Below, piece after piece: positions 7,954 to 23,791 of a stretch of DNA of 28,975 bases (position 1 is its first letter; the number at the start of each line of letters is the position of its first letter). A program made the translations under genes and the position numbers. The stretch covers positions 1-28,975 of the forward strand of contig QNCV01000001.1 of the NCBI GenBank assembly GCA_003645845.1, in the 5' to 3' direction. This DNA is from Fidelibacterota bacterium. Lineage in GTDB: Bacteria; Fidelibacterota; UBA2242. The notes below the pieces were generated by a model. The model saw only the letters and a list, made by a program, of their open reading frames with translations. It made no database searches and was not told the origin of the DNA.

Positions 7954-9237
7954 ATGAAGAAAGGTCGTTATAGTGCTCTGATATTAATTTTAGTGAGCAG
8001 TCTGGTTCTAAGGGCTGATCTGCCGGAGGGATTACGGTATAAGCGGCTCAAATCGGCGATCCCCACGTCCTATCGTTTTGATTTTAAACGGGCCCTTTCT
8101 TTTTTAAAGAAAGACCAGAACTACCAGGCGAAAATAATACTGGAACGCCTTGTGAAAACACACCCTGATTTTTACGTTTACTGGGCCTATGGTTATACGG
8201 AGCGGATGATGAATAATACAGCCAGTGCCCGCGCTCTGTATTTTAAAGCCTTTGAGATGAATGATTCTCTGCTGACTTTTTTGCGGGATTATGCTGATTT
8301 TGTTGAGGCAACCAGTGCGGAATGGCTTGTTGTCAGGCGGCTAACCCGGGCGCTTTACACCGCCCAGCCCGATGATTACCCTCTGATGTTTATGCTGGAT
8401 AAAGCCGTAGAAACCGGTCAGCAAAGTGCGGCGCTTGATTTTCTTCGGGAACTGGCCGAAACGCACCCCGGCGACACCAGAATCGGGGTCTTTCAGGCTG
8501 TGGTCCTCAGCTACCTGGGGCGTGGGACTGAGGCGGTACAGTCGGCCCTTGAGGTGGTTGAGGATACGGAAAGCCTGTTTCAATTGCAAATGCTGGAACG
8601 AATTCTGGCGAACAACGGCTATTTTGTGGAAGCCGCCGGGGCCTGTGAAAAAATGACCGGCATCGCAAAAAAATCTGCCGTTACGTATAGCGCCTGGGGG
8701 CATCTTGAATTCATGCAGGGTCATTATGAGAATGCGGTCACCTATTATCGGAAATCCTTGAATGCGGATTATCGTCCGAGCACTCTGATTAAACTGGCCC
8801 GGATTACTCTTTTATACCTGAATGATCCGAAGCAGGCGGTTTATTATGGAAAATCGGCCCTGCAGATTGATCGTCGGGAATCCGATGCCTGTTTTATCCT
8901 GGCGGAATCCTACCGCCGGCTGGCCAGGATGGACAAAGCTCTGGACTATTCAAGCCGCCTGCTCAAGCTCATGCCGGATCATCCTCATCCCTACTATTAT
9001 CACGGGAAACTGCTGTTTGAATTAAAACGCTATACCGAGGCGGTGACTTACCTGGAACAGGCTGTTGCACTAAGTCCGGAAGTGCAGCGTTACCGGCTAA
9101 TTCTGGCAAAAGCCTATGCAGGAGCCGGTCAAAAGGACAGAGCCAAAGCTATTTACACGAATTTTATTAACGAACCTATCGGCAATTTATGGTCCGAAGA
9201 AGAATTACTCAAAGAAGAACCTCCAGAGCCGCGTTAA
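7954..9237 (+). CDS. Exported tetratricopeptide-repeat protein
   Basis: Signal peptide (MKKGRYSALILILVSSLVLRA). Many TPR units, e.g. AWGHLEFMQGHYENAVTYYRKSL and YYHGKLLFELKRYTEAVTYLEQAVALSP. Confidence 0.85.
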   Translation: MKKGRYSALILILVSSLVLRADLPEGLRYKRLKSAIPTSYRFDFKRALSFLKKDQNYQAKIILERLVKTHPDFYVYWAYGYTERMMNNTASARALYFKAFEMNDSLLTFLRDYADFVEATSAEWLVVRRLTRALYTAQPDDYPLMFMLDKAVETGQQSAALDFLRELAETHPGDTRIGVFQAVVLSYLGRGTEAVQSALEVVEDTESLFQLQMLERILANNGYFVEAAGACEKMTGIAKKSAVTYSAWGHLEFMQGHYENAVTYYRKSLNADYRPSTLIKLARITLLYLNDPKQAVYYGKSALQIDRRESDACFILAESYRRLARMDKALDYSSRLLKLMPDHPHPYYYHGKLLFELKRYTEAVTYLEQAVALSPEVQRYRLILAKAYAGAGQKDRAKAIYTNFINEPIGNLWSEEELLKEEPPEPR

Positions 9238-10811
9238 TTGTTCTGATTCTGTGTGCTCAGATGCTTATTATTCTGGCGTCCTGTTCGGCTCGTCTTCCCC
9301 GGAAGCATCTTCCGGAGCCGGTTCTGCCGAATCATCCGGAAATTTTGAATTTATACTGGGAAAGCTGGCGCCTTGTTAATAATGCCCGCTATCAGGGTAC
9401 CCGGTTGAACGGATTTCCTGATCAATATTTAAATATAGAAAACGGAAGTGTTATTAATCAATGGCCAACCCTCTCTTCGGCCCTTTTCGCTATGTACGGG
9501 TACCGGGATTTTCCGGTCATGCAAACGCTGGATCTGTTTTACAACAAGCAGCGTTCCGACGGGTTCATAGCCCGGACGTATATCGTCAATTCCGGTGATC
9601 CTTTGCATCTACCCACACAATTGGACCCCATGATTAATCCGCCACTGTTTGCCTGGGTTGAGTTGAAATATTTTACCCTTTCCGGTGACAGCGTCCGTCT
9701 GCGGCAGGTTTTCCCGAAATTGGAGCGTTATTTTGCCTGGATTGATCAGTTCTGCCGGGGAAAATACGAGGCGACGGATTTGTATTACACGACGGCAATT
9801 GGTTCCGGGATGCTGAATCTGCCCCGCGGTGATGTTGAGCATGGTGGCTGGACGGACTTGACGGCTCAGATGGCCCTCTTCGCCGAGCAGCTTGCCAGGA
9901 TTGCCGGCATTCTGAATGTTCCGGAAAGGGAGCGATACTACCATGAGCGTTATCTGTCCATTAGTCGGGCGATTCAGTCAAAACTCTGGAATCCCGATTC
10001 CAGTTTTTATTACGATTATTCACGTGAGGGTAAGACATCCTTTCTGCGGACAATCAACGGTTTTTGGCCTTTGCTGGCTGGCATTCCCGACACCGATCAG
10101 GCCCGCCGATTGATCGGATATCTCAAAGACCCCAACGATTTTGCGCCGAAACACATGTTCCCCAGTGTCTCCGTCCGGGAAATCGATTATAATCCCCTGG
10201 GATTTTACTGGCGCGGTGGCGTATGGGGAATTTCCAATTACATGATTATTCAGAGCCTGAAGCGCTATGGTGAGACGGAGTTTGCCCGCGAAGCGGCCTG
10301 GAACCATTTGAAAAATATGGCGGAAGTATATCGGGGATTCGATCTTTCGGTGGATGCCGAATGCCCGGAACCGGAGAGCGGAATGGCTGGCAAAATATGG
10401 GAGGTTTATGCGCCCGAAAAGGTCTGTCCGGGGACCAACTGGAACGCTCAAAATCTCTGCCGGCCTGACCAGATCAGCTTTTCCGGTCACGGCCCGATCT
10501 CTATGGTCATTGAGGATATTCTGGGGTTTCAGACCGATGCTCCGGAGGACGAACTTCGGTGGCATATGACCAGGGCGGATCGGCACGGTATCCGACGCCT
10601 GGGTTTCGGTGATAATACGGTATCTGTCTGGACAGAACCTGATACGGTCCGACCGGAAGTTCTGACTTTGGCAGGATCCACGGATTCGGAGTTTAAACTG
10701 ATCATTGATACTGTACAGGACAGTTTTCTGGTAAACTTTGATCCGGGACCGATTGCGGTCAGTTTTCTACCGGCGGATTATCTGCTGAGGGGCCGTTTCA
10801 GTCAACAATAA
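9189..10811 (+). CDS. GH63/MGH1-like (trehalase-type alpha6/alpha6 barrel) glycoside hydrolase-fold lipoprotein, probably catalytically degenerate
   Basis: Lipobox LASC. Motifs QRSDGFIAR, NPPLFAWVE, LWNPDSSFYYD, FWPLLAG, YWRGGVW, IWEVYAPE. Start codon uncertain. Confidence 0.8.
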   Translation: MVRRRITQRRTSRAALIVLILCAQMLIILASCSARLPRKHLPEPVLPNHPEILNLYWESWRLVNNARYQGTRLNGFPDQYLNIENGSVINQWPTLSSALFAMYGYRDFPVMQTLDLFYNKQRSDGFIARTYIVNSGDPLHLPTQLDPMINPPLFAWVELKYFTLSGDSVRLRQVFPKLERYFAWIDQFCRGKYEATDLYYTTAIGSGMLNLPRGDVEHGGWTDLTAQMALFAEQLARIAGILNVPERERYYHERYLSISRAIQSKLWNPDSSFYYDYSREGKTSFLRTINGFWPLLAGIPDTDQARRLIGYLKDPNDFAPKHMFPSVSVREIDYNPLGFYWRGGVWGISNYMIIQSLKRYGETEFAREAAWNHLKNMAEVYRGFDLSVDAECPEPESGMAGKIWEVYAPEKVCPGTNWNAQNLCRPDQISFSGHGPISMVIEDILGFQTDAPEDELRWHMTRADRHGIRRLGFGDNTVSVWTEPDTVRPEVLTLAGSTDSEFKLIIDTVQDSFLVNFDPGPIAVSFLPADYLLRGRFSQQ

Positions 10812-11745
10812 AGTTTTCTCTGATCAAACTGGCGGTTGTCAATACATCTGCGACATAGGTGCGGCTGTTATTATAACGTAACAGTGCCCGTTGCTGACGC
10901 AGTATGTCATCCGTCCAGCCTTTACGGCTCAGAAAGTTTCCAACGCTCATAATGGCGTCAGTGTAATTATATAGATCGATTTTTCCATCCCGGTCGCCAT
11001 CGATGCCATACCGTAAAACATTCGAGGGCATGAACTGGGGATACCCGAAGGCGCCGGCGTAGGAACCGGGCAGTTCAAGAATATCCAGATGACTTTCGTC
11101 ATGGAGTCTTAGCAAAGCGCCGAATTCGGTCCGCGCCCAGGCTGCTTTACGAATAGCCCGTTTCTGATAAAGATTGATCAGATACCTTCGTTTATCAAAA
11201 CTCAGATAATGATATCGCTCGTTGATATAATTCTCAATCCGTGCCAGGGACTCCGGACTATCGGCATTTGAAAGGGAACTGAGAACATTGAAAACCGAGT
11301 ATTTGCCAACTATTTTACCCAGTTTTGTTTCGACAAACAGGACTGCGACGATAGCCTCTCTGTTTACTCCGAACCGCTGTTCGGCAGTATCCAACTGGCT
11401 CTGATAATGCTGCAGAAAATCTTCAATTTCATAGGTAACGTTTTCTGTATGGAAAAATGTACTGCTGTAACTGTCCATCGCCGGTGGACTTGATAACTTA
11501 ACGGCAATGTCAGGGTAATAGACCACCCGAGGGTCCCGAAAGAGCTGTTGCACTTCAGCCATATTAAAATTTTGTTCGGCGAGGTAGCTAAACAGCATGG
11601 CATAATCCCGGGACGGGACCGGCTTGGCATCCGTTTCCGGCACCATTGCGTAGTCGCGTACCCTGAATGAGAGCACAACGACCAGCAGTATAGCAACCAT
11701 AAGCCCTTTTTTAGTTCGTTTCAAATAATTTATTAAGTTCTTCAT
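10798..11745 (-). CDS. Lytic murein transglycosylase, MltB/SLT_2 family, with N-terminal membrane anchor
   Basis: VETKLG (catalytic Glu), GSYAGAFGYPQFMPS, EF-hand DGDRDGKIDL, YNNSRTYV. Confidence 0.92.
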   Translation of the reverse strand: MKNLINYLKRTKKGLMVAILLVVVLSFRVRDYAMVPETDAKPVPSRDYAMLFSYLAEQNFNMAEVQQLFRDPRVVYYPDIAVKLSSPPAMDSYSSTFFHTENVTYEIEDFLQHYQSQLDTAEQRFGVNREAIVAVLFVETKLGKIVGKYSVFNVLSSLSNADSPESLARIENYINERYHYLSFDKRRYLINLYQKRAIRKAAWARTEFGALLRLHDESHLDILELPGSYAGAFGYPQFMPSNVLRYGIDGDRDGKIDLYNYTDAIMSVGNFLSRKGWTDDILRQQRALLRYNNSRTYVADVLTTASLIRENFIVD

Positions 11746-13387: not shown

Positions 13388-14533
13388 GTGACTATGATCA
13401 AAAGCAAAGTCGTTGAAGAATTGATTCATTTTACTCAGAATGAGTATCCGGTAACCAGCGCTTATTTTACCCTGTCCAGTAAAGTCGGCAATCACAAAAC
13501 CAGTCTGGTTGAACTCAAAAAAATGATTCGTTACAAGAAGAATACGACCTATTTCAGGCAACTGAATGAAGTCGAGAAAAAATCGGTTTTAGCCGACTTC
13601 GAAAAAATTCTTAACTGGTTTGAAGAGGAACTGGATAGCTCAAAATATGTCAGCTCCATTTGCTTTTGTCAAAGCGGAACCGGTTTCTGGAAGGTTCGTA
13701 ATCTGCGGATTCCACTTCAGAATGAAATAATCATTCAGCCCAAACCCTCGATTTACCAACTGTCACAATTGTTCAGTCAATACAGTCGTTATGCGGTAGT
13801 TCTGGTGGATAAAAGCAAAGCCCGCATTTTTGAGCAGTCGCTGGGTGATTTTACCGAAATCTATGCCGTAGAGGACAATGCACCCGAGACTGTCAAAGTC
13901 GGGGGTTATCGTGGACGCCAGGAGCGTCGGGTCGAACGGAATATTAAAAAAGGGGTGGCGGAACATTACAAGGAGGTTGCCAATAAGATATTTGCTCTTA
14001 ATAAACGCCGGGATTTTAATTGGATTGTCCTGGGCGGCCGCCGGGAATCCGTCGGAAAGTTTCAAGGTATCCTGCATGATTACGTGGCTTCCAAAATTGC
14101 AGGAACGGTTGAAATTGAACCTCAGGCTCCCCTGAGCGAGGTCTTCAGTAAGGTTCAAAAGGCCGGTCTGAAGGCTCGCCGGAAGTATGAGACGGGACTG
14201 TTGGAAACTTTTAACAATAAAAAAACTGCCAACCAGGCCGTAGCCGGAATAGATGCGGTTTTACCGATGCTGCGGGATAATTGGGTGGATACTCTTTTAT
14301 TACAGGAGAATTACCGCCGTAAAGGGGTCTTTTGCCGGCATTGTCAGTATATCGATCTGTCGACGCACGCCGAGTGTCCAAAGCATGGCGGACCGCTTGA
14401 ACGAACCCATAATATAATCGAACATATGCTGCATAACGCCTTACTTCAGGGGGTTGATGTTCAATATCTGCAGCAATCGCTGGAGCAATACGGATATCTG
14501 GGCGCAATATTGCGCTTTCCTCTGACCTCCTGA
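13388..14533 (+). CDS. Bacterial archaeo-eukaryotic release factor (eRF1/aRF1-like, baeRF) family protein
   Basis: YAVVLVDKSKARIF, GG loop (VGGYRGRQERR), IVLGG, C-terminal eRF1 domain-3-like VDTLLL...CRHC...CPKHG...LGAILRF. GAGGAG ribosome-binding site. Confidence 0.85.
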   Translation: MTMIKSKVVEELIHFTQNEYPVTSAYFTLSSKVGNHKTSLVELKKMIRYKKNTTYFRQLNEVEKKSVLADFEKILNWFEEELDSSKYVSSICFCQSGTGFWKVRNLRIPLQNEIIIQPKPSIYQLSQLFSQYSRYAVVLVDKSKARIFEQSLGDFTEIYAVEDNAPETVKVGGYRGRQERRVERNIKKGVAEHYKEVANKIFALNKRRDFNWIVLGGRRESVGKFQGILHDYVASKIAGTVEIEPQAPLSEVFSKVQKAGLKARRKYETGLLETFNNKKTANQAVAGIDAVLPMLRDNWVDTLLLQENYRRKGVFCRHCQYIDLSTHAECPKHGGPLERTHNIIEHMLHNALLQGVDVQYLQQSLEQYGYLGAILRFPLTS

Positions 14534-14753: not shown

Positions 14754-15725
14754 ATGAAAGTCAAAATTCTTTTTGTAGCCTTTCTTCTATTTCCTCTGAT
14801 ACAGGGGTGTAGTCTCTTCAGCAGCGAGGCTGTTGACGAGACGGAAACCGAGACGCTTCAAACTGCTCAGTCGACGGACACAGTGGTAGCGCCAGCTACC
14901 GGCCAGGTGGTAACCAACAGTACACTAACGCCAACCCGGCAATCCCGCTCGGTGGCAACTGCCCCTGCCCGGACGACTCCTGCTGATCAGGATTATGTGG
15001 TCAACGAGCTGACCTTTGAAGTGAAAAAATTGTCTGCCGAGCTGAAACATGTGCAAAGTCAGCTGCAAGACCTGCAGGCCAACAGCCAGATGTGGATGAA
15101 TCCACTGGCCATGTATGACAAGGAAATCGTGACCGATAACGGTACATCAATCTACGGTAAAATTATCTACCAGGATGATAAAATTGTCAAAGTAGAGACC
15201 CTGATCGGTTATCTGGTGCTGGATAAATCATCAATTGTCCGGGTAATTACCAATGTTCCCGAAGAGCCGGCTCAGAAATATGTGCCTCAGGAACTGGTGA
15301 GTGAGGTCTCGCGAGGCACCAGCTATCCTCAGGTTCCCCAACCGGCCTATATCTCCAAATCCGGTGAACCGGCGCAGCTGCCGGAAAGTGCTGCCAAACT
15401 GCCCAATTGTGTACTGGTCGGCAATATCAGTGAGAAAAAAGATCGTTCCGGGAACACCATCTTTTCCGGTGAGGTTAAGAATATCGGTGCCCGGCGTGCG
15501 GATTTTGTGAAGGTTAATTTTATTTTTCGGAAAAACTGGAGCGGCGACACAAAAACCCGGACCGCTTTCGTGGAAGGTACCTATTTTACTTTCGAAGATT
15601 CCGGAATTACGACGAACAATTCACTGTTGCCGGGTGCGACCGGTAAATTTGAGCTGATCATTCCCAAGAATTTTGGCAGCTTCATCGGCTATTCCTACAC
15701 AATTGAGTGGGAGCAGTATAAATAA
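14754..15725 (+). CDS. Lipoprotein: Thr-rich linker, coiled coil, small beta domain, C-terminal FxLYD-like Ig domain
   Basis: Lipobox IQGC (Cys19). Coiled coil NELTFEVKKLSAELKHVQSQLQDLQ. C-terminal GEVKNIG...VKVNF...LLPGATGKFEL resembles FxLYD domains. The stop overlaps the next start (TAATG). Confidence 0.7.
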   Translation: MKVKILFVAFLLFPLIQGCSLFSSEAVDETETETLQTAQSTDTVVAPATGQVVTNSTLTPTRQSRSVATAPARTTPADQDYVVNELTFEVKKLSAELKHVQSQLQDLQANSQMWMNPLAMYDKEIVTDNGTSIYGKIIYQDDKIVKVETLIGYLVLDKSSIVRVITNVPEEPAQKYVPQELVSEVSRGTSYPQVPQPAYISKSGEPAQLPESAAKLPNCVLVGNISEKKDRSGNTIFSGEVKNIGARRADFVKVNFIFRKNWSGDTKTRTAFVEGTYFTFEDSGITTNNSLLPGATGKFELIIPKNFGSFIGYSYTIEWEQYK

Positions 15726-16528
15726 TGCATTTACCATTCACTAAGATTGCCGGTTTGTCGTTTTTACTAATGGGATTCGCTTTTTCTCAAACCGACTCGA
15801 CTTTGATTGATATTTCTGAAAAAAAAGCGAAGCTGAACGAGAAGAATGTTCAGATGCTGGAATTGCAGTCCGATATCAGCAGTCATGACGAAGAGCTTCG
15901 GGCTATTCGGGATGAAATTGAAAAACTGAAAGCCTATAATCGGCGACTTCAGGATTCTTTGCTAACCAAACAGGCGGAGATTGATTCGCTGAAAGAGCAG
16001 CAGAACCAGGTGGAAAATTTTAAGATGATCGTCAATGCGTTTGACGAAGACAAAGCCCTGACCGATGAAATCCTGGAGTCAATTAAAAGCTCTGATGTGG
16101 CGCCGAAGGATACGGTGGCGACCGTTACTCTGGAGGAAACTCCGGATGATACGGAGTACCGGACACTATACAACGAAGCGCTTAATCTATATTTTGATCG
16201 GGATTATAAGTCCAGTATTGGCAAATTCAGAGAACTATTAACCCGCAGTCGGAAACATCCCCTGGCAGATAACTGCCAGTACTGGTTGGGTGAAAACTAT
16301 TATTCTCAGGAAAATTATTCCCAGGCAATTGCGGAATTTCAGAAAGTTGCTCCCCTGGGTGACGGTAATAAGGCGGATGCCGCTCTGTTTAAAATCGGGA
16401 TGAGCCAGCTGAAGATGGGACAGGACGCCTCCGCCCGGGAAACCTTTACCCGGCTGGAAAAACAGTTTCCCGACAGCGATTTGCTGGATAAAGCCCGGCA
16501 ATATTTAACGTCCCGGGAAAAGTTTTGA
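15725..16528 (+). CDS. CpoB/YbgF-like periplasmic coiled-coil plus TPR protein
   Basis: Signal peptide and long coiled coil, then YNEALNLYFDRDY, LADNCQYWLGENYYSQENYSQAIAEFQKV and KADAALFKIG, which are typical YbgF TPRs. Confidence 0.82.
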   Translation: MHLPFTKIAGLSFLLMGFAFSQTDSTLIDISEKKAKLNEKNVQMLELQSDISSHDEELRAIRDEIEKLKAYNRRLQDSLLTKQAEIDSLKEQQNQVENFKMIVNAFDEDKALTDEILESIKSSDVAPKDTVATVTLEETPDDTEYRTLYNEALNLYFDRDYKSSIGKFRELLTRSRKHPLADNCQYWLGENYYSQENYSQAIAEFQKVAPLGDGNKADAALFKIGMSQLKMGQDASARETFTRLEKQFPDSDLLDKARQYLTSREKF

Positions 16529-17277
16529 AAGGATATGTTTGTAAGGTAATTTTAATGCTTTGTCTGCCCCTAATCTTAGACGCTCAGGAAAGCGATACGA
16601 CGCGGGGTAAAACCGACAAAAGTTTCATGTACGATTTAGGAATCAAGATTGAGCCAGCGAGGGAGTCTGCCCCCCTTCAAGGCATTGGCGTTGCTAACCC
16701 AAGTTTGGTTCGACTACAGAGCCAAATGGACTCCCTCACCTCGGCTTTTTCAATGTATAAGCAGGATACCGACCGGCGTATTACAGAACTGGATCAAGCG
16801 CTTGATTCTGTGAAGCTGGTAAACAGGCAACTTGAAAAGCGGATTTATTTATCACCCTATGCATCGGCGGGAAATCCTCGTTTAATTTATTCAAAAAAAG
16901 AAGGAGAGCGCTTTTTTCAAAAGGGCACGGATGCCTATAACGCTCAAAATTATCCGGTTGCGGTGGATTATTTCCGGAAATGTATTGATAGTGAGGCCGG
17001 CGGTAGCCTGATCGGGGATGCCTATTTCTGGGTTGGTAACAGTTATATTCATCTCAAAGACGAATATCTGGCGCTGGAATATCTCAAACGGGTACCGGAA
17101 TATCCGCTATGTAAGAATATTGACGATGCACTTTTTCTGACGGCGGTTACCTACCGGAAACTGGGTGATGCAGAGATGGCCAGATTTTTTTTAGAGAGGC
17201 TGCTCAGGCGTTTTCCCGATGGGGAGATGGCCAAACTGGCTCTATTGGAGTTAAAGCGACTGAAGTCTATGGATTGA
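16525..17277 (+). CDS. Second CpoB/YbgF-like coiled-coil plus TPR protein
   Basis: TTG start overlaps the previous TGA. Signal peptide and coiled coil, then DAYFWVGNSY and DDALFLTAVTYRKLGD...LLRRFPDG. Confidence 0.75.
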   Translation: MKGYVCKVILMLCLPLILDAQESDTTRGKTDKSFMYDLGIKIEPARESAPLQGIGVANPSLVRLQSQMDSLTSAFSMYKQDTDRRITELDQALDSVKLVNRQLEKRIYLSPYASAGNPRLIYSKKEGERFFQKGTDAYNAQNYPVAVDYFRKCIDSEAGGSLIGDAYFWVGNSYIHLKDEYLALEYLKRVPEYPLCKNIDDALFLTAVTYRKLGDAEMARFFLERLLRRFPDGEMAKLALLELKRLKSMD

Positions 17278-17299: not shown

Positions 17300-18640
17300 A
17301 TGATAAAACGTACTTATATTCTGTTACTAATCATTCTGATACTGACGGTTTCGGCGTTGGGGCAGATAACGCGGGTCGCTTTTACCAAACCAGGATATAT
17401 GATGAAAATCCCGACCAGCAGTATCTATCGGACCCCCTATATTTTCCGCACCGGGATCAGCACCGATATTTACGGATTTGCCGATACCCTGATTACGCGG
17501 GGCGTCTTTTTCGAAACCGATCTGTCCAACACGTTTAAGATTGGCGTTACGTCGATTCAGGGGTTGGGAACGAGTCCTCCGGTGGAATTTGGCCTCCATT
17601 TTCAAAAACGGCTATTCGTCTATGGCGATATCAGTTTCTCGGCCGGCATTCATGATCTCGTGTTGAAGCAGGGAGATAAAGAACTGAACATTGATACCAG
17701 GACCCTGTCGATTTTTGGGGTCATCAGTAATGAAAAACAATTTGAAAACAGCAGCATGTCTACCTATATGGGCTTTGGTACCGGTGGTTTGGCAACCGGG
17801 TTCGGGAGTGACTCGGCGACCAGTGCCGGCGTGTTTGCGGGGATTTTGCTGCATACCAATATCATGGCCGAGCGCGGCGGTGTCGAATTCATCGGTGAAT
17901 TTGATGGTGGCGGAATTAACGCTGGTGTGCGGATTCCCTTTACCAAGGACTACAATCTCTCACTGGGTGTCAATAATCTGGTTAAACTGTATAATTTCGG
18001 CGCGGAGGATTTTGACCTGACTAATGTCAGTGATTATCCCAGTCTGAATATCGGCCTTGACTTTCGGATTCCACGGGTCAAGCCCGAAAGCGCCCGGAGG
18101 CGCCGGCTGGAAGGCATGGTGGACGATGAATCCCAGATGGTTCTGGATATGGAAGAACAGTTTGCGATGAAGTTGGATTCGACTCTGAAAGCTGCGGATT
18201 TTGAAATTGCCAAACTGAAAGATTCTTTGCGGGTCTTTGAGTCTGAGATCAAATATCTGACCAGTGAAGTTGCTCAGCTGCGCCAGAAAACCGCAGTTTT
18301 GGAGGATTCGGTTCGTTCGGCAAAACTGGCCAGACACGCCATGGAGCAGAACATCAACCTGGCGCTTAAGCATCTCTCCCGTTCACTACGCTATTTCTAC
18401 GCCGGTGATTACCGGGAAGCGCTGCAGGAAGTCGAAGCGGCGATTGATCTGAATCCGAATCTGGCTCTGGCCTATGCCCGCCGGGGTTCGATCTATTATA
18501 AACTGGGCGATATTGACCGGGCCACCATCAACTGGAACCTGGCCCTGCGGATAGATCCCGAGTACGATGATGTTCGCAATATTTTGAGAGCCCTTAACGA
18601 AAACCGTCTCAGAAGCACAGGGTCGACTCGAAAGGAATAA
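17300..18640 (+). CDS. Outer-membrane beta-barrel (YjbH-like) fused to a coiled coil and C-terminal TPRs
   Basis: Signal peptide. Residues ~45-257 are Gly/aromatic alternating beta strands including EFDGGGINAGVRIPF. Residues ~265-352 are heptad-rich. Residues 353-425 are canonical TPRs (NPNLALAYARRGSIYYKLGD). Confidence 0.7.
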   Translation: MIKRTYILLLIILILTVSALGQITRVAFTKPGYMMKIPTSSIYRTPYIFRTGISTDIYGFADTLITRGVFFETDLSNTFKIGVTSIQGLGTSPPVEFGLHFQKRLFVYGDISFSAGIHDLVLKQGDKELNIDTRTLSIFGVISNEKQFENSSMSTYMGFGTGGLATGFGSDSATSAGVFAGILLHTNIMAERGGVEFIGEFDGGGINAGVRIPFTKDYNLSLGVNNLVKLYNFGAEDFDLTNVSDYPSLNIGLDFRIPRVKPESARRRRLEGMVDDESQMVLDMEEQFAMKLDSTLKAADFEIAKLKDSLRVFESEIKYLTSEVAQLRQKTAVLEDSVRSAKLARHAMEQNINLALKHLSRSLRYFYAGDYREALQEVEAAIDLNPNLALAYARRGSIYYKLGDIDRATINWNLALRIDPEYDDVRNILRALNENRLRSTGSTRKE

Positions 18641-18650
18641 GGATTAGTTT

Positions 18651-19439
18651 ATGGATATTGCAAGTTTATTAGGTATTTTAGCCGGCATTGGTTTAATTGT
18701 TCTGGGAATTTACCAGCTCACTCCCAACTTTATGATTTTTGTCAGTATGGCCAGCTTGCTGATCGTGGCCGGCGGTTCCTTTGCGGCCACTCTGCTGAGT
18801 TTTTCACTCAGCGATGTGTTTGGCCTGCTGCGCTCCGCCTTTGCGGTCTTTAAAAAACAGAAGATCGATCTGCCGGCGGAGGTGGACGCCATCGTGGAGC
18901 TGGCGCCGATTGCCCGCAAGAGCATGCAGGAGCTGGAAAAATCATTGGTCAATGTCAGGAACTACTTCCTTCGGGACGGTTTACAGATGGTGGTGGATGG
19001 CTATAACCCGGATGAAATCCGGGAAATCCTGGAAACCCGAATCGAAAACCGGATCCTTCGTGAAAAAAGCGAGGCCAATGTGCTGCGGACCATGGGCAAA
19101 TATTCCCCGGCTTTCGGAATGATCGGAACCCTGATCGGTCTGGTGGTGATGCTTTATGGGATGGCGGACATGGCCGGTGGCGGTGAAGACCCCATGGCCG
19201 TGCTGGGCGCCGGAATGGGCGCGGCGCTGATCACGACCTTTTACGGCACGATCCTGGCAAATATGTTTTTTAATCCCATGGCCGAAAAATTTGAAACCCG
19301 GATCAAAAAACAGACAACGATGCAACAGATGCTGATTGAGGGAACGTTGCTTATTCATGCACGTAAGCATCCTCTGATTGTCCGGGAAAAATTGAATTCC
19401 TATCTGAGGCCGCGGGATTGGAAGAAACCTGAGGAATAG
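18651..19439 (+). CDS. motA: Flagellar-type stator A subunit (MotA/PomA)
   Basis: MDIASLLG start, LLIVAGGSFAATL, ARK...LE, FLRDGLQMVVDG, SPAFGMIGTLIGLV, ALITTFYG, NMFFNPMAEK, PLIVREKLNSYL. Confidence 0.93.
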   Translation: MDIASLLGILAGIGLIVLGIYQLTPNFMIFVSMASLLIVAGGSFAATLLSFSLSDVFGLLRSAFAVFKKQKIDLPAEVDAIVELAPIARKSMQELEKSLVNVRNYFLRDGLQMVVDGYNPDEIREILETRIENRILREKSEANVLRTMGKYSPAFGMIGTLIGLVVMLYGMADMAGGGEDPMAVLGAGMGAALITTFYGTILANMFFNPMAEKFETRIKKQTTMQQMLIEGTLLIHARKHPLIVREKLNSYLRPRDWKKPEE

Positions 19440-19446
19440 AGCGTAA

Positions 19447-20133
19447 ATGACTGAAAAGGCGGCTCGTAAAAAGAAAAATTTATATGCTGAAGAGGGCGGC
19501 AAAGAGGCCGAACCGTGGCTGTTGACCTACGGTGATATGATGACGCTTCTGATGACCTTCTTCGTGCTGCTGTTTTCCATGAGCACCATAGATCCGGTGA
19601 AGCTGGAACAGTTCAGTGATTCCATGGGGCAGGCTCTGGGAAAGAAAACCAAGGCCAAAAAATATTCCCTGGCGGAAATCTACAAGGATGTCGTTAAGGT
19701 TATCGAGGAAGAATCTCTTCAGGATCAGATTCAGGTGGAGACCAGTGAAAGGGGTGTCGCCATTAAAATTCCCAGCGAGATTTCCTTTGGTGTCGGTAGC
19801 GCCGATTTAGATCCCCGCATTTATCCGATTTTAAATAAGTTTGTCGATATGATGCAAAAATCAACCTACCCGATTGCCATTGAGGGGCATACCGATAATG
19901 TTCCCATGCGTTCAGCCGTGTTTCCGTCGAACTGGGAGCTTTCGGCGGCCCGGGCCGCCCAGGTGGTGCGTTATTACATCAATCAGGGAATTTCATCGGA
20001 ACGGTTTCAGGCCATTGGGTATGCGGATACCCGGCCCCGGGCCCGCGGGGCTACTATTGCGGAAGCCAACGCAACTTCGGCGCAGAGAGACATGAACCGC
20101 CGGGTTGAAATTTTCTTTCTGACAATTCAATAA
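19447..20133 (+). CDS. motB: Flagellar-type stator B subunit (MotB/PomB) with OmpA-like peptidoglycan-binding domain
   Basis: WLLTYGDMMTLLMTFFVLLFSMS (ion-binding Asp30), plug helix, IEGHTD, NWELSAARA, NRRVEI. Confidence 0.93.
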   Translation: MTEKAARKKKNLYAEEGGKEAEPWLLTYGDMMTLLMTFFVLLFSMSTIDPVKLEQFSDSMGQALGKKTKAKKYSLAEIYKDVVKVIEEESLQDQIQVETSERGVAIKIPSEISFGVGSADLDPRIYPILNKFVDMMQKSTYPIAIEGHTDNVPMRSAVFPSNWELSAARAAQVVRYYINQGISSERFQAIGYADTRPRARGATIAEANATSAQRDMNRRVEIFFLTIQ

Positions 20134-20149
20134 ATTTAGGAGACATGCA

Positions 20150-21622
20150 ATGCTCAAGAGTCGGAAATATATGAATACAATAGCGGCGCTCTGTATCATC
20201 CTGCTGATGATCTCCCAACAGGCGCTGTCTCAGGAAAATCAGATGTCCTATCTCTCCCAGAAACTGATGCTGGAAAACAGCATTCGTGAGCGGGTGGCGG
20301 ATGCTCTGGATAAACTTCTTGATGATATAAAGTTTGTAGTGGATGTCGCTGTGGAACTGGAGTTTAAGGTGCCGGAGAGAACCGTTACCGAAACCCAGCC
20401 CCTTACTCGGCAGGAAACTCCGACCACTCCAGCGAAGGCGGCTTCAAATGTATTGACGGCGCAGGAATCAACAACAAAACCTGCATCAAAACAGGGCAGT
20501 GCTGATCTGGGATTACCATTGCCGGGATTTGAAACTCCTGAGGATGTAGTCCGAACCGAAGAGAAAACCACACCGGTTCTGAAAGAGGGTCCGCCGACTG
20601 AATCCGAGACATCGGAAACGTCGACAACTACCGTAACTCCGGCTCAGCAACCAGCCGGAATTGTTAGCAAGACGGTTCAGGCAGGCAGGGCTGTACCGGT
20701 TGTCAAACGGCAACAGGTCAACATCATTATGGAAGACGGTGTTACGCCTGAAATTATTGAAAATGTTCGTCAGGTTGCAGCAATTGCGTCCCACTATGAC
20801 CGCACCCGGGGGGATGTGATCAGTGTAATGACTGCATCATTTAAAAAACGGGAAAAACAGGATGGCGCCGAAGCCGTTATTTTAAAGAATATTGCTGAGA
20901 AAATTGATGATCTGGAACGTCGTCAACAGCGTGCCGAACAGGAAGCCCGGATTGAAGCCCAGAAGCGGATTGAGCGTCAGGCCGTGGTGCGGGATTCACT
21001 GCGAATTCAGGAATTACGGAAGCAGATTGCCGATTTACAGAACCAGCTTCAGGCTCCCATGTTACCTGATGACCAGAGGGCTCGGACCGAAGCCATGGCC
21101 AGTGCACGGGAAACCGAATTGGCGAATCTCAAAGAGCAGCTGCGGGAAAGTAACCGGCGGCTCCAGGAACTTGAGATGGGCGCTATGGAGACGATTCCGC
21201 CGCGCTTTATTCGCTCTGATAATCTGGCGCTATACATCATTTTAGGTCTTTTTGTCATTGCTCTGTTGATATTGCTGATCCTTTTACTGGTGAATCGAAG
21301 AAATCATCAAAAACGTCAGGAACTGGAATGGGGCTATGGCACGAAAGTCCCGATGGGCCCCAGACCGCAGCCGGCAGCCCGGCCGCAACCCCAGACACCG
21401 CCGACCGCACCGCCACCTGTTCAACCCGAAGCTCCGGCTGCACCACAAGCACCGTCGGTACAGGCACCATCGGTTGATCCTGCCGCCCTGAAGGAAGAGA
21501 TGAAAAGCATTAAACAATCGGTCATTTCCATGAGTGTTGGTCAGCCCGATACGGCCTCGCGGGTAATTAACGAATGGCTGGGACAGACGAAAAAAACCGA
21601 AGAGTCCGAATCGGAATTCTAA
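20150..21622 (+). CDS. FliF-like (M-ring C-terminal/RBM3-like) protein with signal peptide, periplasmic coiled coil, single TM and cytoplasmic FliG-binding tail
   Basis: LENSIRERVADAL..FVVDVAVELEF and KRQQVNII...IENVRQVAAIASHYDRTRGDVISV resemble the split RBM3 of FliF. The C-terminal QPDTASRVINEWL resembles the FliF tail. It lies directly upstream of fliG. Confidence 0.72.
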   Translation: MLKSRKYMNTIAALCIILLMISQQALSQENQMSYLSQKLMLENSIRERVADALDKLLDDIKFVVDVAVELEFKVPERTVTETQPLTRQETPTTPAKAASNVLTAQESTTKPASKQGSADLGLPLPGFETPEDVVRTEEKTTPVLKEGPPTESETSETSTTTVTPAQQPAGIVSKTVQAGRAVPVVKRQQVNIIMEDGVTPEIIENVRQVAAIASHYDRTRGDVISVMTASFKKREKQDGAEAVILKNIAEKIDDLERRQQRAEQEARIEAQKRIERQAVVRDSLRIQELRKQIADLQNQLQAPMLPDDQRARTEAMASARETELANLKEQLRESNRRLQELEMGAMETIPPRFIRSDNLALYIILGLFVIALLILLILLLVNRRNHQKRQELEWGYGTKVPMGPRPQPAARPQPQTPPTAPPPVQPEAPAAPQAPSVQAPSVDPAALKEEMKSIKQSVISMSVGQPDTASRVINEWLGQTKKTEESESEF

Positions 21623-21635
21623 GAAGGAGTGTAAT

Positions 21636-22568
21636 ATGGTAGATTTTAAAAACCTCGACGGTTTAGATAAAGTGGCCATCCTGTTTAAAACCCTGGGTAA
21701 CAACCTGGCCCTGCAACTATTTAAGGGTATGACAAAAGACCAGATTCGCAAAGTCCGGGAACGAATGAGCAGCATTAATAATATACCCTTTACAGTGAAA
21801 AAGGAGATTCTGGAGGAATTTTATTTCGGCTTTGTTTCGGAAAAATTTTCTCCACCTACCGAAGAGACAAAAAAGCCCTTTGAATTTTTACTTAATATGA
21901 CCGATGAGCAGGTCGTTTATCTGATTGCTACGGAGACACCGCGCATTATGGCTCTGGCCATTGCTCAGCTGCCGGTGGATCGACAGGTGAATGTGCTTCA
22001 GGCTCTTGACCCCACCATTCAGCCCAAAGTGATGACCGAAATCGGTCATCTGGGTGATATCCCTCTGGAGGGGGTGGTCAGCATTGCCAATGAATTGAAA
22101 GAAAAATCCGCTTTTATCCCCAGGGCGTCGGAATTCAACCGGGGTGGCGGAGAAAATCTGGCCGGGATTCTCAGCCAAATGCGTCCCAGGGATGAAAAAC
22201 GTTTTCTGGAACATCTGGAAAAAGAGGCTCCGGATGTGGTTCAGGAAGTTAAACGTCACTATTTCAGTTTTGAGGATTTGCCTAAACTGCCACATGATAT
22301 CCTGGCGGATGTGCTGAAATCCGTAGAAGCTTCTGAGGTGGCCTACGCTCTCAAGGGACAGCCTGAAGAAATGAAAGAGTTGTTTATCAATTCGCTGCCC
22401 CAGCGAACCCAGATTATTCTGGAAGATGAAATGGAATTGCTGGAGGGTCCCCAGCCCCGCCGCAAAGTCGAAGCCGCCCAGAAGGCGATTGTGGACAAAG
22501 CCCGGGAACTGGAGAAAGAGGGTCGTTTTCGGCTGGAAGATTTTATGGAAGCCGATTTTATCGAGTAA
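21636..22568 (+). CDS. fliG: Rotor/switch protein FliG homolog (310 aa)
   Basis: GLDKVAILFKTLG (FliG-N), PFEFL, ETPRIMALAI (FliG-M), GGENLAGIL, FSFEDL, ALKG...PQR...EDE...GP...VEAAQKAI (FliG-C). Confidence 0.92.
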   Translation: MVDFKNLDGLDKVAILFKTLGNNLALQLFKGMTKDQIRKVRERMSSINNIPFTVKKEILEEFYFGFVSEKFSPPTEETKKPFEFLLNMTDEQVVYLIATETPRIMALAIAQLPVDRQVNVLQALDPTIQPKVMTEIGHLGDIPLEGVVSIANELKEKSAFIPRASEFNRGGGENLAGILSQMRPRDEKRFLEHLEKEAPDVVQEVKRHYFSFEDLPKLPHDILADVLKSVEASEVAYALKGQPEEMKELFINSLPQRTQIILEDEMELLEGPQPRRKVEAAQKAIVDKARELEKEGRFRLEDFMEADFIE

Positions 22569-22624: not shown

Positions 22625-22657
22625 ACTGCACAAATCAAAATAGTGAAAGAGATACAA

Positions 22658-23791
22658 ATGCATCGGTTGATTTGCTTCGGACAGTGGGCAATTATCCTGA
22701 TAATCTTGTCCTTTGGATTACATGCCCAGACCGCTGAAATTCAGGAAGCCCGGTTGCAGGAGGCCCTGAAGGCCATGAACCGAATGGAGCATGAAAAGGC
22801 GGTGGCCCTTTTTCAGGAAGTTGCCCTGAATCAGCCGTATCATCCACTGGGCTCTTTTGGTGCGCTGGCAAACCGGTGGATTGTGAATCAGGGTAAATAC
22901 GGCTATCGCGCCGGAAACAGGGAACTTTTGGAAGATGTCGATGCCGTAATTATCGATTTCCGGCGTCGTTTGGTCGCAAATCCGGACGATGCGGAGCTTA
23001 AATATTACATCGGATTGTGCAACGGTTTGCGCGCCCGGGTGCTGTTGGCCGAGAAAGACTGGATTGGTGTTCTGGTCAGTGGTTACCGGATTATCCGCAA
23101 TTTTAAATCCGTATTGAGAGACAATTCCAAGGATCCCGACATTGTGATTGCCTTCGGCGTGTTCAATTATTATGTCGGTTTGTCGTCGGGATTTATGAAA
23201 ATCGCCTCTTGGATCATGCATCTCTCGGGCTCCAAAGAAGAGGGCTTGCAGCAAATTGAATTTGCAGCTCTTAAGGGAAATTACTGCCGTTACGAAGCCC
23301 GCAGCATTCTGGCTTATCTGAATCTTTATTTTGAATCCGATTACCCTGCCGCAAAACGCTGGCTGGATATGCTGATTGCCGAATTTCCCGAAAATCCCTA
23401 TTACAACTTTCTTTATGCAGAGTATAATGTCCGTACCGGTAATCCGGATATCGACATTTACCTCCGACTGATCCGTCAGCGTCTCGACAGTCTCGATCCC
23501 TTTTTTCGGCAAGAGTATGTGCAGCGCCTGCGGCTTCTGGAGGGCAGCCAGGCTCTGCTGCAGCATGATCTGGATAAGGCAGAGGGAAAACTGCTGAGTT
23601 TTTTGGAGCATTTTGATTCAGAAATGGATTATGATCTGGCCAGCGCCTATCTGCGCTTGGGTCAGCTCTACGATCTTCGCCACGAGCGTCAAAAAGCCCG
23701 GGAGTACTATCAGAAAACCGTGAATCTTGATAATCGCAGCGCTGCGGTGCTGGAAGCAAAAAAATATCTGGATACACCGTATTTGCAGTAA
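22658..23791 (+). CDS. Exported TPR-containing helical protein of unknown function
   Basis: ATG at 22658 is preferred over GTG at 22643. Signal peptide ending LHA-Q. C-terminal TPR AYLRLGQLYDLRHERQKAREYYQKTV. Confidence 0.75.
   Translation: MHRLICFGQWAIILIILSFGLHAQTAEIQEARLQEALKAMNRMEHEKAVALFQEVALNQPYHPLGSFGALANRWIVNQGKYGYRAGNRELLEDVDAVIIDFRRRLVANPDDAELKYYIGLCNGLRARVLLAEKDWIGVLVSGYRIIRNFKSVLRDNSKDPDIVIAFGVFNYYVGLSSGFMKIASWIMHLSGSKEEGLQQIEFAALKGNYCRYEARSILAYLNLYFESDYPAAKRWLDMLIAEFPENPYYNFLYAEYNVRTGNPDIDIYLRLIRQRLDSLDPFFRQEYVQRLRLLEGSQALLQHDLDKAEGKLLSFLEHFDSEMDYDLASAYLRLGQLYDLRHERQKAREYYQKTVNLDNRSAAVLEAKKYLDTPYLQ

Follow-up and report, generated by a model that had tools for sequence, protein, structure and literature searches.

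So far, FliF, FliG and MotAB have been known from one machine only, the flagellum. The locus analyzed here raises the question of what a FliF-like protein does when it is encoded together with FliG and MotAB in an operon that otherwise holds envelope proteins. The locus lies in a stretch of 28,975 nucleotides (the window; positions 1 to 28,975 of contig QNCV01000001.1, forward strand) from a metagenome-assembled genome (MAG; GCA_003645845.1) of Fidelibacterota, an ocean phylum for which Marinimicrobia and Neomarinimicrobiota are alternative names. The gene in question (20150-21622, plus strand) is an intact open reading frame of 490 codons, codes for 490 amino acids (aa) and is preceded by an AGGAG ribosome-binding site 8 nt upstream. 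We consider it likely that its product is a FliF paralogue reduced to the S-ring module, and that it forms the core of a flagellum-independent rotor-stator complex. This view is carried by the domain architecture of the protein, its fold, the conservation of the operon and the phylum-wide independence of the system from flagellar genes.

Domain architecture and fold

PF08345, the Pfam family of the FliF C-terminal part that contains the third ring-building motif (RBM3), matched aa 53-231 over the full profile (E 5.6e-7). No Pfam match to PF01514, which covers RBM1/RBM2, the part homologous to SctJ in which the export gate sits, was found in the 490-aa protein; the canonical FliF of the same MAG scores 5e-58 on that family. 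A monomer model was built with AlphaFold from 40 homologues. It comprises a helix (aa 2-56), strands (62-79), a disordered segment (82-171), strands (174-195), a helix (200-213) and a strand (223-229), followed in the C-terminal half by helices (235-301 and 307-347), a hydrophobic helix (354-393), a second disordered segment (395-440) and two further helices (444-462 and 466-482). The RBM3 elements have the alpha-beta-beta-alpha-beta topology of a ring-building motif.

Comparison of this model with the PDB by Foldseek returned FliF S-rings for all top 15 matches. In the exhaustive structural scan VIA, Vibrio FliF 256-451 and Salmonella FliF 228-438 came first, aligned to aa 28-231 of the model with Z scores of 15.2 and 14.9 and a root mean square deviation (rmsd) of 1.8-2.0 A. 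The RBM3 profile of the family also matched FliF only when searched against the PDB (best E 2.3e-6; Salmonella FliF 3.4e-6), with an alignment spanning Salmonella FliF 241-438, and a single-sequence search of the PDB with the whole protein gave no match. The block R220-G221-D222 is invariant in the homologues and aligns with the RGD of canonical FliF. Only 27 residues lie ahead of RBM3, the first helix of which begins at aa 28; the mature chain starts directly with this domain, and RBM1 and RBM2 are therefore absent. An RBM3-only FliF had been proposed in a first-pass annotation of the window, and Pfam, both fold searches and the family profile bear this out. The Foldseek matches included 8ftf, a 33-mer ring of Salmonella RBM3 alone, and an RBM3-only chain can thus form rings. 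SpoIIIAG, cited as a precedent in that annotation, was rejected as the nearest fold, since it was absent from the top 50 matches listed by Foldseek and by VIA, and the nearest fold is that of FliF itself. An identity as an inner-ring lipoprotein of the SctJ/YscJ/PrgK kind was also discarded, there being no PF01514 match and no Cys at the cleavage site.

The N-terminus resembles a signal peptide, which had been suggested to replace the first transmembrane (TM) helix of FliF. Its uncharged core measures 13 residues; that of the MAG's canonical FliF has 21. Gln occupies the aligned junction position in 39 of the 40 homologues and is preceded in nearly all of them by Ala, Ser or Gly. The same junction ends the N-terminal hydrophobic stretch of four non-lipoprotein exported proteins of the operon, namely, both CpoB-like proteins and the tetratricopeptide repeat (TPR) proteins of 446 aa and 382 aa (TPR446 and TPR382). 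In the window as a whole, five of six N-termini of the signal peptidase I type end in this way, the exception being the TPR protein at 7954. According to a published account of the Bacteroidetes Q-rule, this pattern is typical of signal peptidase I substrates, and the rule is stated there not to hold for the entire Fibrobacteres-Chlorobi-Bacteroidetes (FCB) group (PMC5837995). The short core and the kept junction are consistent with the suggested replacement by a signal peptide that is probably cleaved.

RBM3 is split by a disordered insert (T 21%, P 13%, E 11%) that takes the position of the beta-collar loop of FliF in the profile alignment to Salmonella FliF 241-438. Such a Thr/Pro/Glu low-complexity insert had been read from the sequence and was confirmed by the disorder that AlphaFold assigned to aa 82-171, inside the span of the PF08345 match. 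Within the insert, the motif GLPLPGFE stands out: P125 and G126 are invariant among the 40 homologues, and L122, P123 and F127 are conserved at 90% or above. Related motifs (xPG followed by F, V or L) occur in the inserts of distant relatives in which RBM3 is fused to FliG domains (see below). Homology of GLPLPGFE to the Salmonella collar motif GVPGALSN is not claimed; the profile alignment sets it a few positions further downstream, where confidence is low.

The TM helix, the linker and the tail ending in VINEWL, all anticipated by the first-pass annotation, were recovered by AlphaFold and in the sequence. The last 50 residues are the best-conserved part after RBM3, with E450, V463, G464, P466 and W476 invariant. 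A tail motif, P-x-x-A-x-x-(I/V)-I-x-x-W-L, is placed as in the tail of the MAG's canonical FliF, and both BLAST and hhalign aligned SVISMSVGQPDTASRVINEWL on the ...VVNYVKESPEDAAKLIRSWI tail of that FliF. As to the presumed partner, the N-domain of the co-encoded FliG matches the FliG-N of the FliF-C:FliG-N crystal structures 5TDY and 5WUJ at Z 8, its C-domain matches stator-bound FliG-C (8ucs_H) with an rmsd of 1.4 A, and the Arg...Asp-Glu charges (R..DE) of its torque helix are in register with T. maritima FliG. When the tail was continued into FliG across an X, with alignment rows supplied for FliG alone, it folded as two helices at pLDDT (predicted local distance difference test) 71-81, compared with 61-72 in the full-length monomer, a gain in pLDDT only. 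A candidate interaction between tail and FliG-N is thus supported at the level of motif and context only. We also noted that the tail segment SMSVGQP (21518-21547) resembles ALKGQP of FliG-C (FliG aa about 238-245; 22347-22370) so closely that MAFFT placed the tails on FliG-C time and again. The likeness may be fortuitous, or it may reflect the armadillo-like repeats that the FliG domains have in common with the FliF-C/FliG-N unit.

RBM3 and the TM helix are separated by a charged helical region composed to 53% of E/A/R/Q. AlphaFold modelled its helices (235-301 and 307-347) with a pLDDT of about 88-94; aa 266-301 pack on 307-347 as an antiparallel hairpin in the monomer, and the VIA matches for aa 266-347 are helical hairpins. 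Hydrophobic 3.5-residue periodicity over aa 235-347 was matched or beaten by 651 of 2000 shuffles, in a test that is crude and with an outcome that is compatible with oligomeric coiled coils. The proline at aa 303 is conserved throughout the near clade. Given a periodicity not above that of shuffled sequences, an E/A/R/Q-rich composition and the conserved Pro303, the label coiled coil is unproven. Of the coiled coil that had been assigned to aa 241-345, the long helical region therefore stands and the heptad pattern does not. Its length in homologues falls into classes of 108-116, 149, 187 and 259 aa, and most marine-clade versions of 187 aa contain no Pro or Gly. These features would suit a spacer of adjustable reach, and they favor the earlier idea of a continuous stalk of about 15 nm that raises the ring toward the outer membrane; yet this lift is not established in view of the hairpin, the conserved proline, the periodicity result and the lack of any evident bushing or peptidoglycan-hole gene. 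Furthermore, the fused relatives in other phyla pass from RBM3 straight to the TM helix. Because they lack the spacer, it is a lineage-specific addition outside the minimal machine.

The operon and its distribution

The FliF-like gene is the seventh of nine co-directional genes, the first eight of which are spaced by -4 to 22 nt; ispG comes after the ninth (Table 1). The conserved collinear core runs in the order lipoprotein, barrel-TPR protein (TPR446), MotA, MotB, FliF-like protein and FliG. Pfam and NCBIfam scores assign MotA and MotB to the flagellar stator type, not to TolQR/ExbBD. The operon thus encodes together what defines a flagellar-type rotor-stator core, namely, MotA, a MotB that has both plug and OmpA-like domain, and a FliG in which the charges of the torque helix are kept.

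We fetched 80 loci that carry the gene from GTDB species genomes, single-cell genomes included. They are labelled Marinimicrobia, Neomarinimicrobiota, Fidelibacterota or unclassified, except for one short contig that was binned as SAR86 (L078). Where the contig extends 3.5 kb or more upstream (57 loci), MotA, MotB and the 446-aa TPR protein were always found, in unchanged order and orientation; where it extends 6.5 kb or more (46 loci), the lead lipoprotein always has a homologue as well. A FliG gene, always coding for 309-314 aa, is adjacent in 73 of the 80 loci, and tblastn finds FliG in 76. Distant clades retain the same gene order. The CpoB/YbgF-like genes are variable and occur in only part of the loci, and none of the 80 loci contains flagellar genes within the operon. 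MotA reached a median best-segment identity of 51% and the TPR protein one of 45%; the FliF-like protein, at 33%, was the least conserved member of the core. Compared with a marine-clade homologue, the barrel-TPR protein is 47% identical, versus about 30% for the FliF-like protein. Look-alikes of the 446-aa protein with a YaiO barrel plus TPR are a lead only, and a near look-alike cluster in a protein atlas is labelled Margulisiibacteriota.

Two genes outside this set were noted. A gene of baeRF family 10 (bacterial eRF1-like) lies just 5' of the motor operon, both in the window (13388-14533) and in a distant relative (L007, 2900-4057), so that synteny is kept. On the opposite strand, 3 kb ahead of the operon, is a gene for an SLT_2 lytic transglycosylase (10798-11745, minus strand); the conserved core does not include it, and a connection with peptidoglycan hole-making is therefore improbable.

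Table 1. Coordinates of the features of the FliF-like protein, its operon and three loci of fused relatives
Feature	Position	Strand	Basis
Lead lipoprotein	14754-15725	+	Lipobox LIQGC
CpoB/YbgF-like coiled-coil and TPR proteins (two)	15725-16528, 16525-17277	+	TIGR02795 (E 8e-23, 4e-12)
446-aa protein with beta-rich N-domain, coiled coil and TPR	17300-18640	+	Directly 5' of motA
MotA/PomA-type stator A subunit	18651-19439	+	Pfam, NCBIfam
MotB-type stator B subunit, plug and OmpA-like domain	19447-20133	+	Pfam, NCBIfam
FliF-like: signal-peptide-like N-terminus, aa 1-27, ...ISQQALS/Q	20150-20230	+	13-residue uncharged core, junction conservation
FliF-like: RBM3 first half, helix 28-56 and long strand 62-79	20231-20392	+	AlphaFold; VIA alignment starts at aa 28
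FliF-like: disordered Thr/Pro/Glu-rich insert, aa 82-171 (90 aa)	20393-20662	+	pLDDT <50, composition
FliF-like: GLPLPGFE motif within insert, aa 121-128	20510-20533	+	Conservation in 40 homologues
FliF-like: RBM3 second half, strands 174-195, helix 200-213, strand 223-229	20663-20845	+	AlphaFold, VIA
FliF-like: charged helical region, aa 235-347 (113 aa), conserved break APMLPDD at aa 302-308	20852-21190	+	AlphaFold, VIA, periodicity
FliF-like: TM helix, aa 359-381, then basic cytoplasmic flank NRRNHQKRQ	21224-21292	+	Sequence, AlphaFold
FliF-like: Pro/Ala/Gln-rich disordered cytoplasmic linker, aa 395-440	21332-21469	+	pLDDT <50
FliF-like: C-terminal tail of two helices, aa 444-482, SVISMSVGQPDTASRVINEWL, candidate peptide for FliG-N binding	21479-21595	+	Conservation, alignment to FliF tail
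FliG paralogue, 310 aa, N, M and C domains	21636-22568	+	Pfam
Additional TPR protein (382 aa), ninth gene	22643-23791	+	
Fused gene, MotAB with two MotB copies, CHU_C, PorP/SprF-like barrel	L089, 1-12002		
Fused gene, PorP/SprF-like barrel	L090, 5349-8715		
Fused gene, MotAB, CHU_C	L091, 987-9479		

We then compared the distribution of the family with that of flagellar genes in a phylum-wide sample of 201 genomes; as relatedness makes these genomes non-independent, the counts are descriptive only. The family profile matched 131 of the 201 genomes, 61 of 78 genera and 100 of 141 high-quality genomes. FlhA scored above the cut-off in 48 genomes and the rod/hook family PF00460 in 50, which are almost the same set. 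Among the genomes with the family, 31 have FlhA and 100 do not; among those without it, the corresponding numbers are 17 and 53. The frequency of the family was thus equal (65%) in genomes with FlhA (31/48) and without it (100/153). In the taxonomic family f20, 19 of 20 genomes are carriers and none of the 20 has a rod match. The profile does not pick up canonical FliF, as seen in the family f3, in which all nine genomes have FlhA and a single one matches the profile. With RBM1/RBM2 absent, 100 of 131 carriers devoid of FlhA and the rod proteins confined to nearly the same genomes as FlhA, the data support the earlier proposal that this ring is unable to house a type III export gate.

SprA, the type IX translocon, was detected in 197 of the 201 genomes, with or without the RBM3-only FliF family, and the N-terminal GldM family (GldM_1st) in none of the 201, in a search that had no positive control. 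A motor that replaces GldLM for type IX secretion was rejected as an identity, since the presence of SprA in family-negative genomes shows no strict coupling. With SprA near-universal and GldM not found, the power source of type IX secretion in this phylum may deserve attention.

An exhaustive profile search of 1.84 billion representatives (E <= 0.001) retrieved 275 proteins only. Apart from the Marinimicrobia family itself and ordinary FliF, these include the fused relatives of 545-647 aa, in which an N-terminal RBM3 follows a signal peptide and is itself followed by a single TM helix, FliG-M and FliG-C. One comes from an Elusimicrobiota MAG, and the protein atlas lists clusters of the fused type for Elusimicrobiota, Pseudomonadota and Balneolota. 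Both the tail and FliG-N are missing from at least two of the fused proteins (P0250 and P0237), and this joint absence supports the tail-FliG pairing independently. At the four loci inspected, a gene for a TPR protein precedes the fused gene in each case, and MotA and MotB follow in three; no stator gene is present on the 13-kb contig of L090. Three of the four are located beside genes for CHU_C (type B C-terminal domain) proteins, PorP/SprF-like barrels, or both. The Elusimicrobiota genome that carries L089 gave no match to FlhA, SprA or GldM.

A probable rotor and its alternatives

Taken together, the set of RBM3-only FliF, FliG and MotAB probably encodes an undescribed ion-driven envelope machine in which the FliF-like protein is the rotor. 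We infer cleavage, ring formation, binding of the tail to FliG, rotation, spacer geometry and output as follows. The protein would be exported and probably cleaved at ALS/Q, so that the mature order would be a periplasmic RBM3, the helical spacer, the TM helix, the cytoplasmic linker and the two-helix tail. If the protein behaves like FliF, a large number of subunits would assemble into a ring via their RBM3 domains, and each tail would hold the N-domain of a co-encoded FliG. MotA5B2 stators, anchored to the peptidoglycan via MotB, would push the torque helix of the FliG C-domain and turn the ring, with the torque passing from the TM helix through the helical spacer to the periplasmic RBM3 ring. 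Its likely load would be the envelope set encoded upstream, i.e., the lipoprotein, the barrel-TPR protein and the CpoB-like proteins, and GLPLPGFE, present on the flexible tethers of every subunit, may be a point of contact with this set. As the protein has no RBM1/RBM2 and most hosts are without FlhA and rod proteins, such a ring can be neither gate housing nor rod socket.

Several observations weigh against this reading. Cleavage at ALS/Q, judged by rules rather than by a predictor, is likely but not proven. By sequence, the homology of the tail is weak (hhalign probability 16%, E 0.0016), and its profile produced only chance matches in the PDB, with no FliF among them. The window's own MAG (90% complete, 423 contigs) carries, on other contigs (C11, C139, C188 and C217), FlhA, a FliF of 531 aa, a FliG of 352 aa and rod genes, so that the statement "no flagellum" fails for this genome. 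Matches to FlhA or rod proteins were found in 0 of 6 same-genus genomes, and the flagellar contigs may reflect strain-level gain or loss or may be mis-binned. The phylum has a single cultured representative, which is non-motile (PMC11652737). No RNA sequencing runs containing the operon were listed.

A more far-reaching version of the rotor reading is possible, and we put it forward tentatively. The system may be a distinct and widespread ion-driven, non-flagellar rotary envelope machine, in which an S-ring on a tunable spacer drives, or turns against, the barrel-TPR protein and the lipoprotein, with GLPLPGFE as docking site; fused versions in related phyla may move giant surface adhesins together with PorP/SprF-like partners. 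If true, this would add a further class of ion-driven envelope motor to the flagellum and the type IX/gliding motor, in a highly abundant ocean phylum.

The strongest alternative, which we nevertheless regard as unlikely, is a complex that does not spin, in which MotAB-FliG would transmit a limited force or conformational signal through the spacer for an upkeep of outer membrane or peptidoglycan of the Tol-Pal/CpoB kind. The two CpoB/YbgF-like genes of the operon (TIGR02795) fit this idea, as does the charged, helical and length-variable spacer, which is like those of periplasm-spanning transducers. Moreover, a palisade of roughly 34 long helices, 15-28 nm in reach, would have to clear the peptidoglycan bound by a short-linker MotB and would be hard to spin through it, with no bushing or peptidoglycan-hole gene in sight. 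However, the CpoB-like genes are missing from many loci while the core is constant, the FliG torque helix is whole and the C-domain fits the structure of stator-bound FliG. Flagellar-type stators are known solely as rotary drives.

An accessory or second rotor of an ordinary flagellum encoded elsewhere in the genome, perhaps a stator-rotor set specialized for particular conditions and comparable to the paralogous FliG or stator sets of some flagellated bacteria, is improbable. The flagellar genes of the window's own MAG (FlhA, full-length FliF, second FliG and rod genes) and the 31 FlhA-positive carriers among 131 are what this explanation would lead one to expect; the 100 carriers without FlhA, and whole taxonomic families that are rod-free (f20), are not. 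Carriage at 65% irrespective of FlhA, operons free of flagellar genes at 80 loci and the missing RBM1/2, which leaves neither gate nor rod socket, argue in the same direction, as do the 0 of 6 same-genus genomes with FlhA or rod matches and the possible mis-binning of the flagellar contigs. A functionless, decaying remnant of a lost flagellar system, as filament-less rotor proteins in non-motile species are sometimes read (bioRxiv 10.1101/2024.12.05.626484), is very hard to reconcile with intact frames, a strict gene order over 61 of 78 genera, many invariant residues, an acquired signal peptide, spacer and conserved motif, and dedicated non-flagellar partners.

The flagellum-independent rotor-stator complex thus remains the reading that we prefer. 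It places a torque-generating core apart from secretion, rod, hook and filament, with new periplasmic features and a link to outer-envelope proteins, in about two thirds of the sampled Marinimicrobia genomes and, as fused variants, in other phyla. If the rotor works as proposed, it would reveal the minimal needs of a FliF ring and bear on the evolution and reuse of the flagellar motor module. It would also point to a so far unrecognized, energy-dependent role in the envelope of a marine phylum that is abundant worldwide and almost uncultured.

Comparison with known systems

With FliF of Salmonella and Vibrio (PDB 6SCN, 6SD1, 8T8P, 8Z5V and 8Z4D), the protein shares the RBM3 fold, an insertion at the collar position, the RGD block, a C-terminal TM helix, a disordered linker, a short helical tail with a conserved Trp and a fliG gene immediately downstream. 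It differs in the absence of RBM1/RBM2 and in a signal-peptide-like N-terminus where FliF has TM1. The collar loop is replaced by the 90-aa disordered insert with GLPLPGFE, and 113 aa of charged helices precede the TM helix. Its gene partners are motAB and envelope TPR genes, not fliE/fliH/fliI, mostly in genomes without FlhA or rod genes.

FliF-FliG fusions, such as those of Salmonella mutants and the Vibrio FliF-FliG (PDB 8Z4D), show that FliF and FliG function as a 1:1 unit. In contrast to these, the window's protein is separate from FliG and retains the tail and the putative FliG-N interface. A remodelled FliF in a non-flagellated lineage is known from the FliF-FliG of Chlamydiaceae (Bergeron 2016, PMC4768692). 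It represents the opposite truncation, as it keeps RBM2, has no RBM3-type domain and is unlinked to motAB (PMC4768692). Rotor proteins without filament genes were reported in a 2025 survey for about 11% of non-motile species, with the remark that they "could have an alternative function" (bioRxiv 10.1101/2024.12.05.626484). In the literature, we found no description of an RBM3-only FliF with FliG and MotAB.

Similarities also exist to systems outside the flagellum. The GldLM/PorLM motor is likewise an ion-driven inner-membrane motor of the MotAB superfamily, with periplasm-spanning helices thought to drive outer-membrane components, and the fused relatives adjoin PorP/SprF-like barrels and CHU_C proteins. 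However, GldM is itself the B-type subunit and there is no FliG/RBM ring, whereas here a separate FliG/RBM3 rotor would be driven from the cytoplasmic face. Tol-Pal with CpoB also combines a motor of the MotAB superfamily with coiled-coil/TPR CpoB-like proteins encoded beside it. We presume a resemblance in composition between the helical spacer and TolA domain II, as a lead only. The stator here is of the flagellar MotAB/PomAB type, TolA, TolB and Pal are not present and FliG is. SpoIIIAG, with a single ring-building motif and an inserted beta element, builds a large periplasm-like ring without RBM1/2; in the present case there is no sporulation or spoIIIA context, and FliG and MotAB are the partners. 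The nearest relatives in architecture are the uncharacterized proteins of Elusimicrobiota and other metagenomic contigs in which a signal peptide, RBM3 and a TM helix are fused to FliG (M and C domains).

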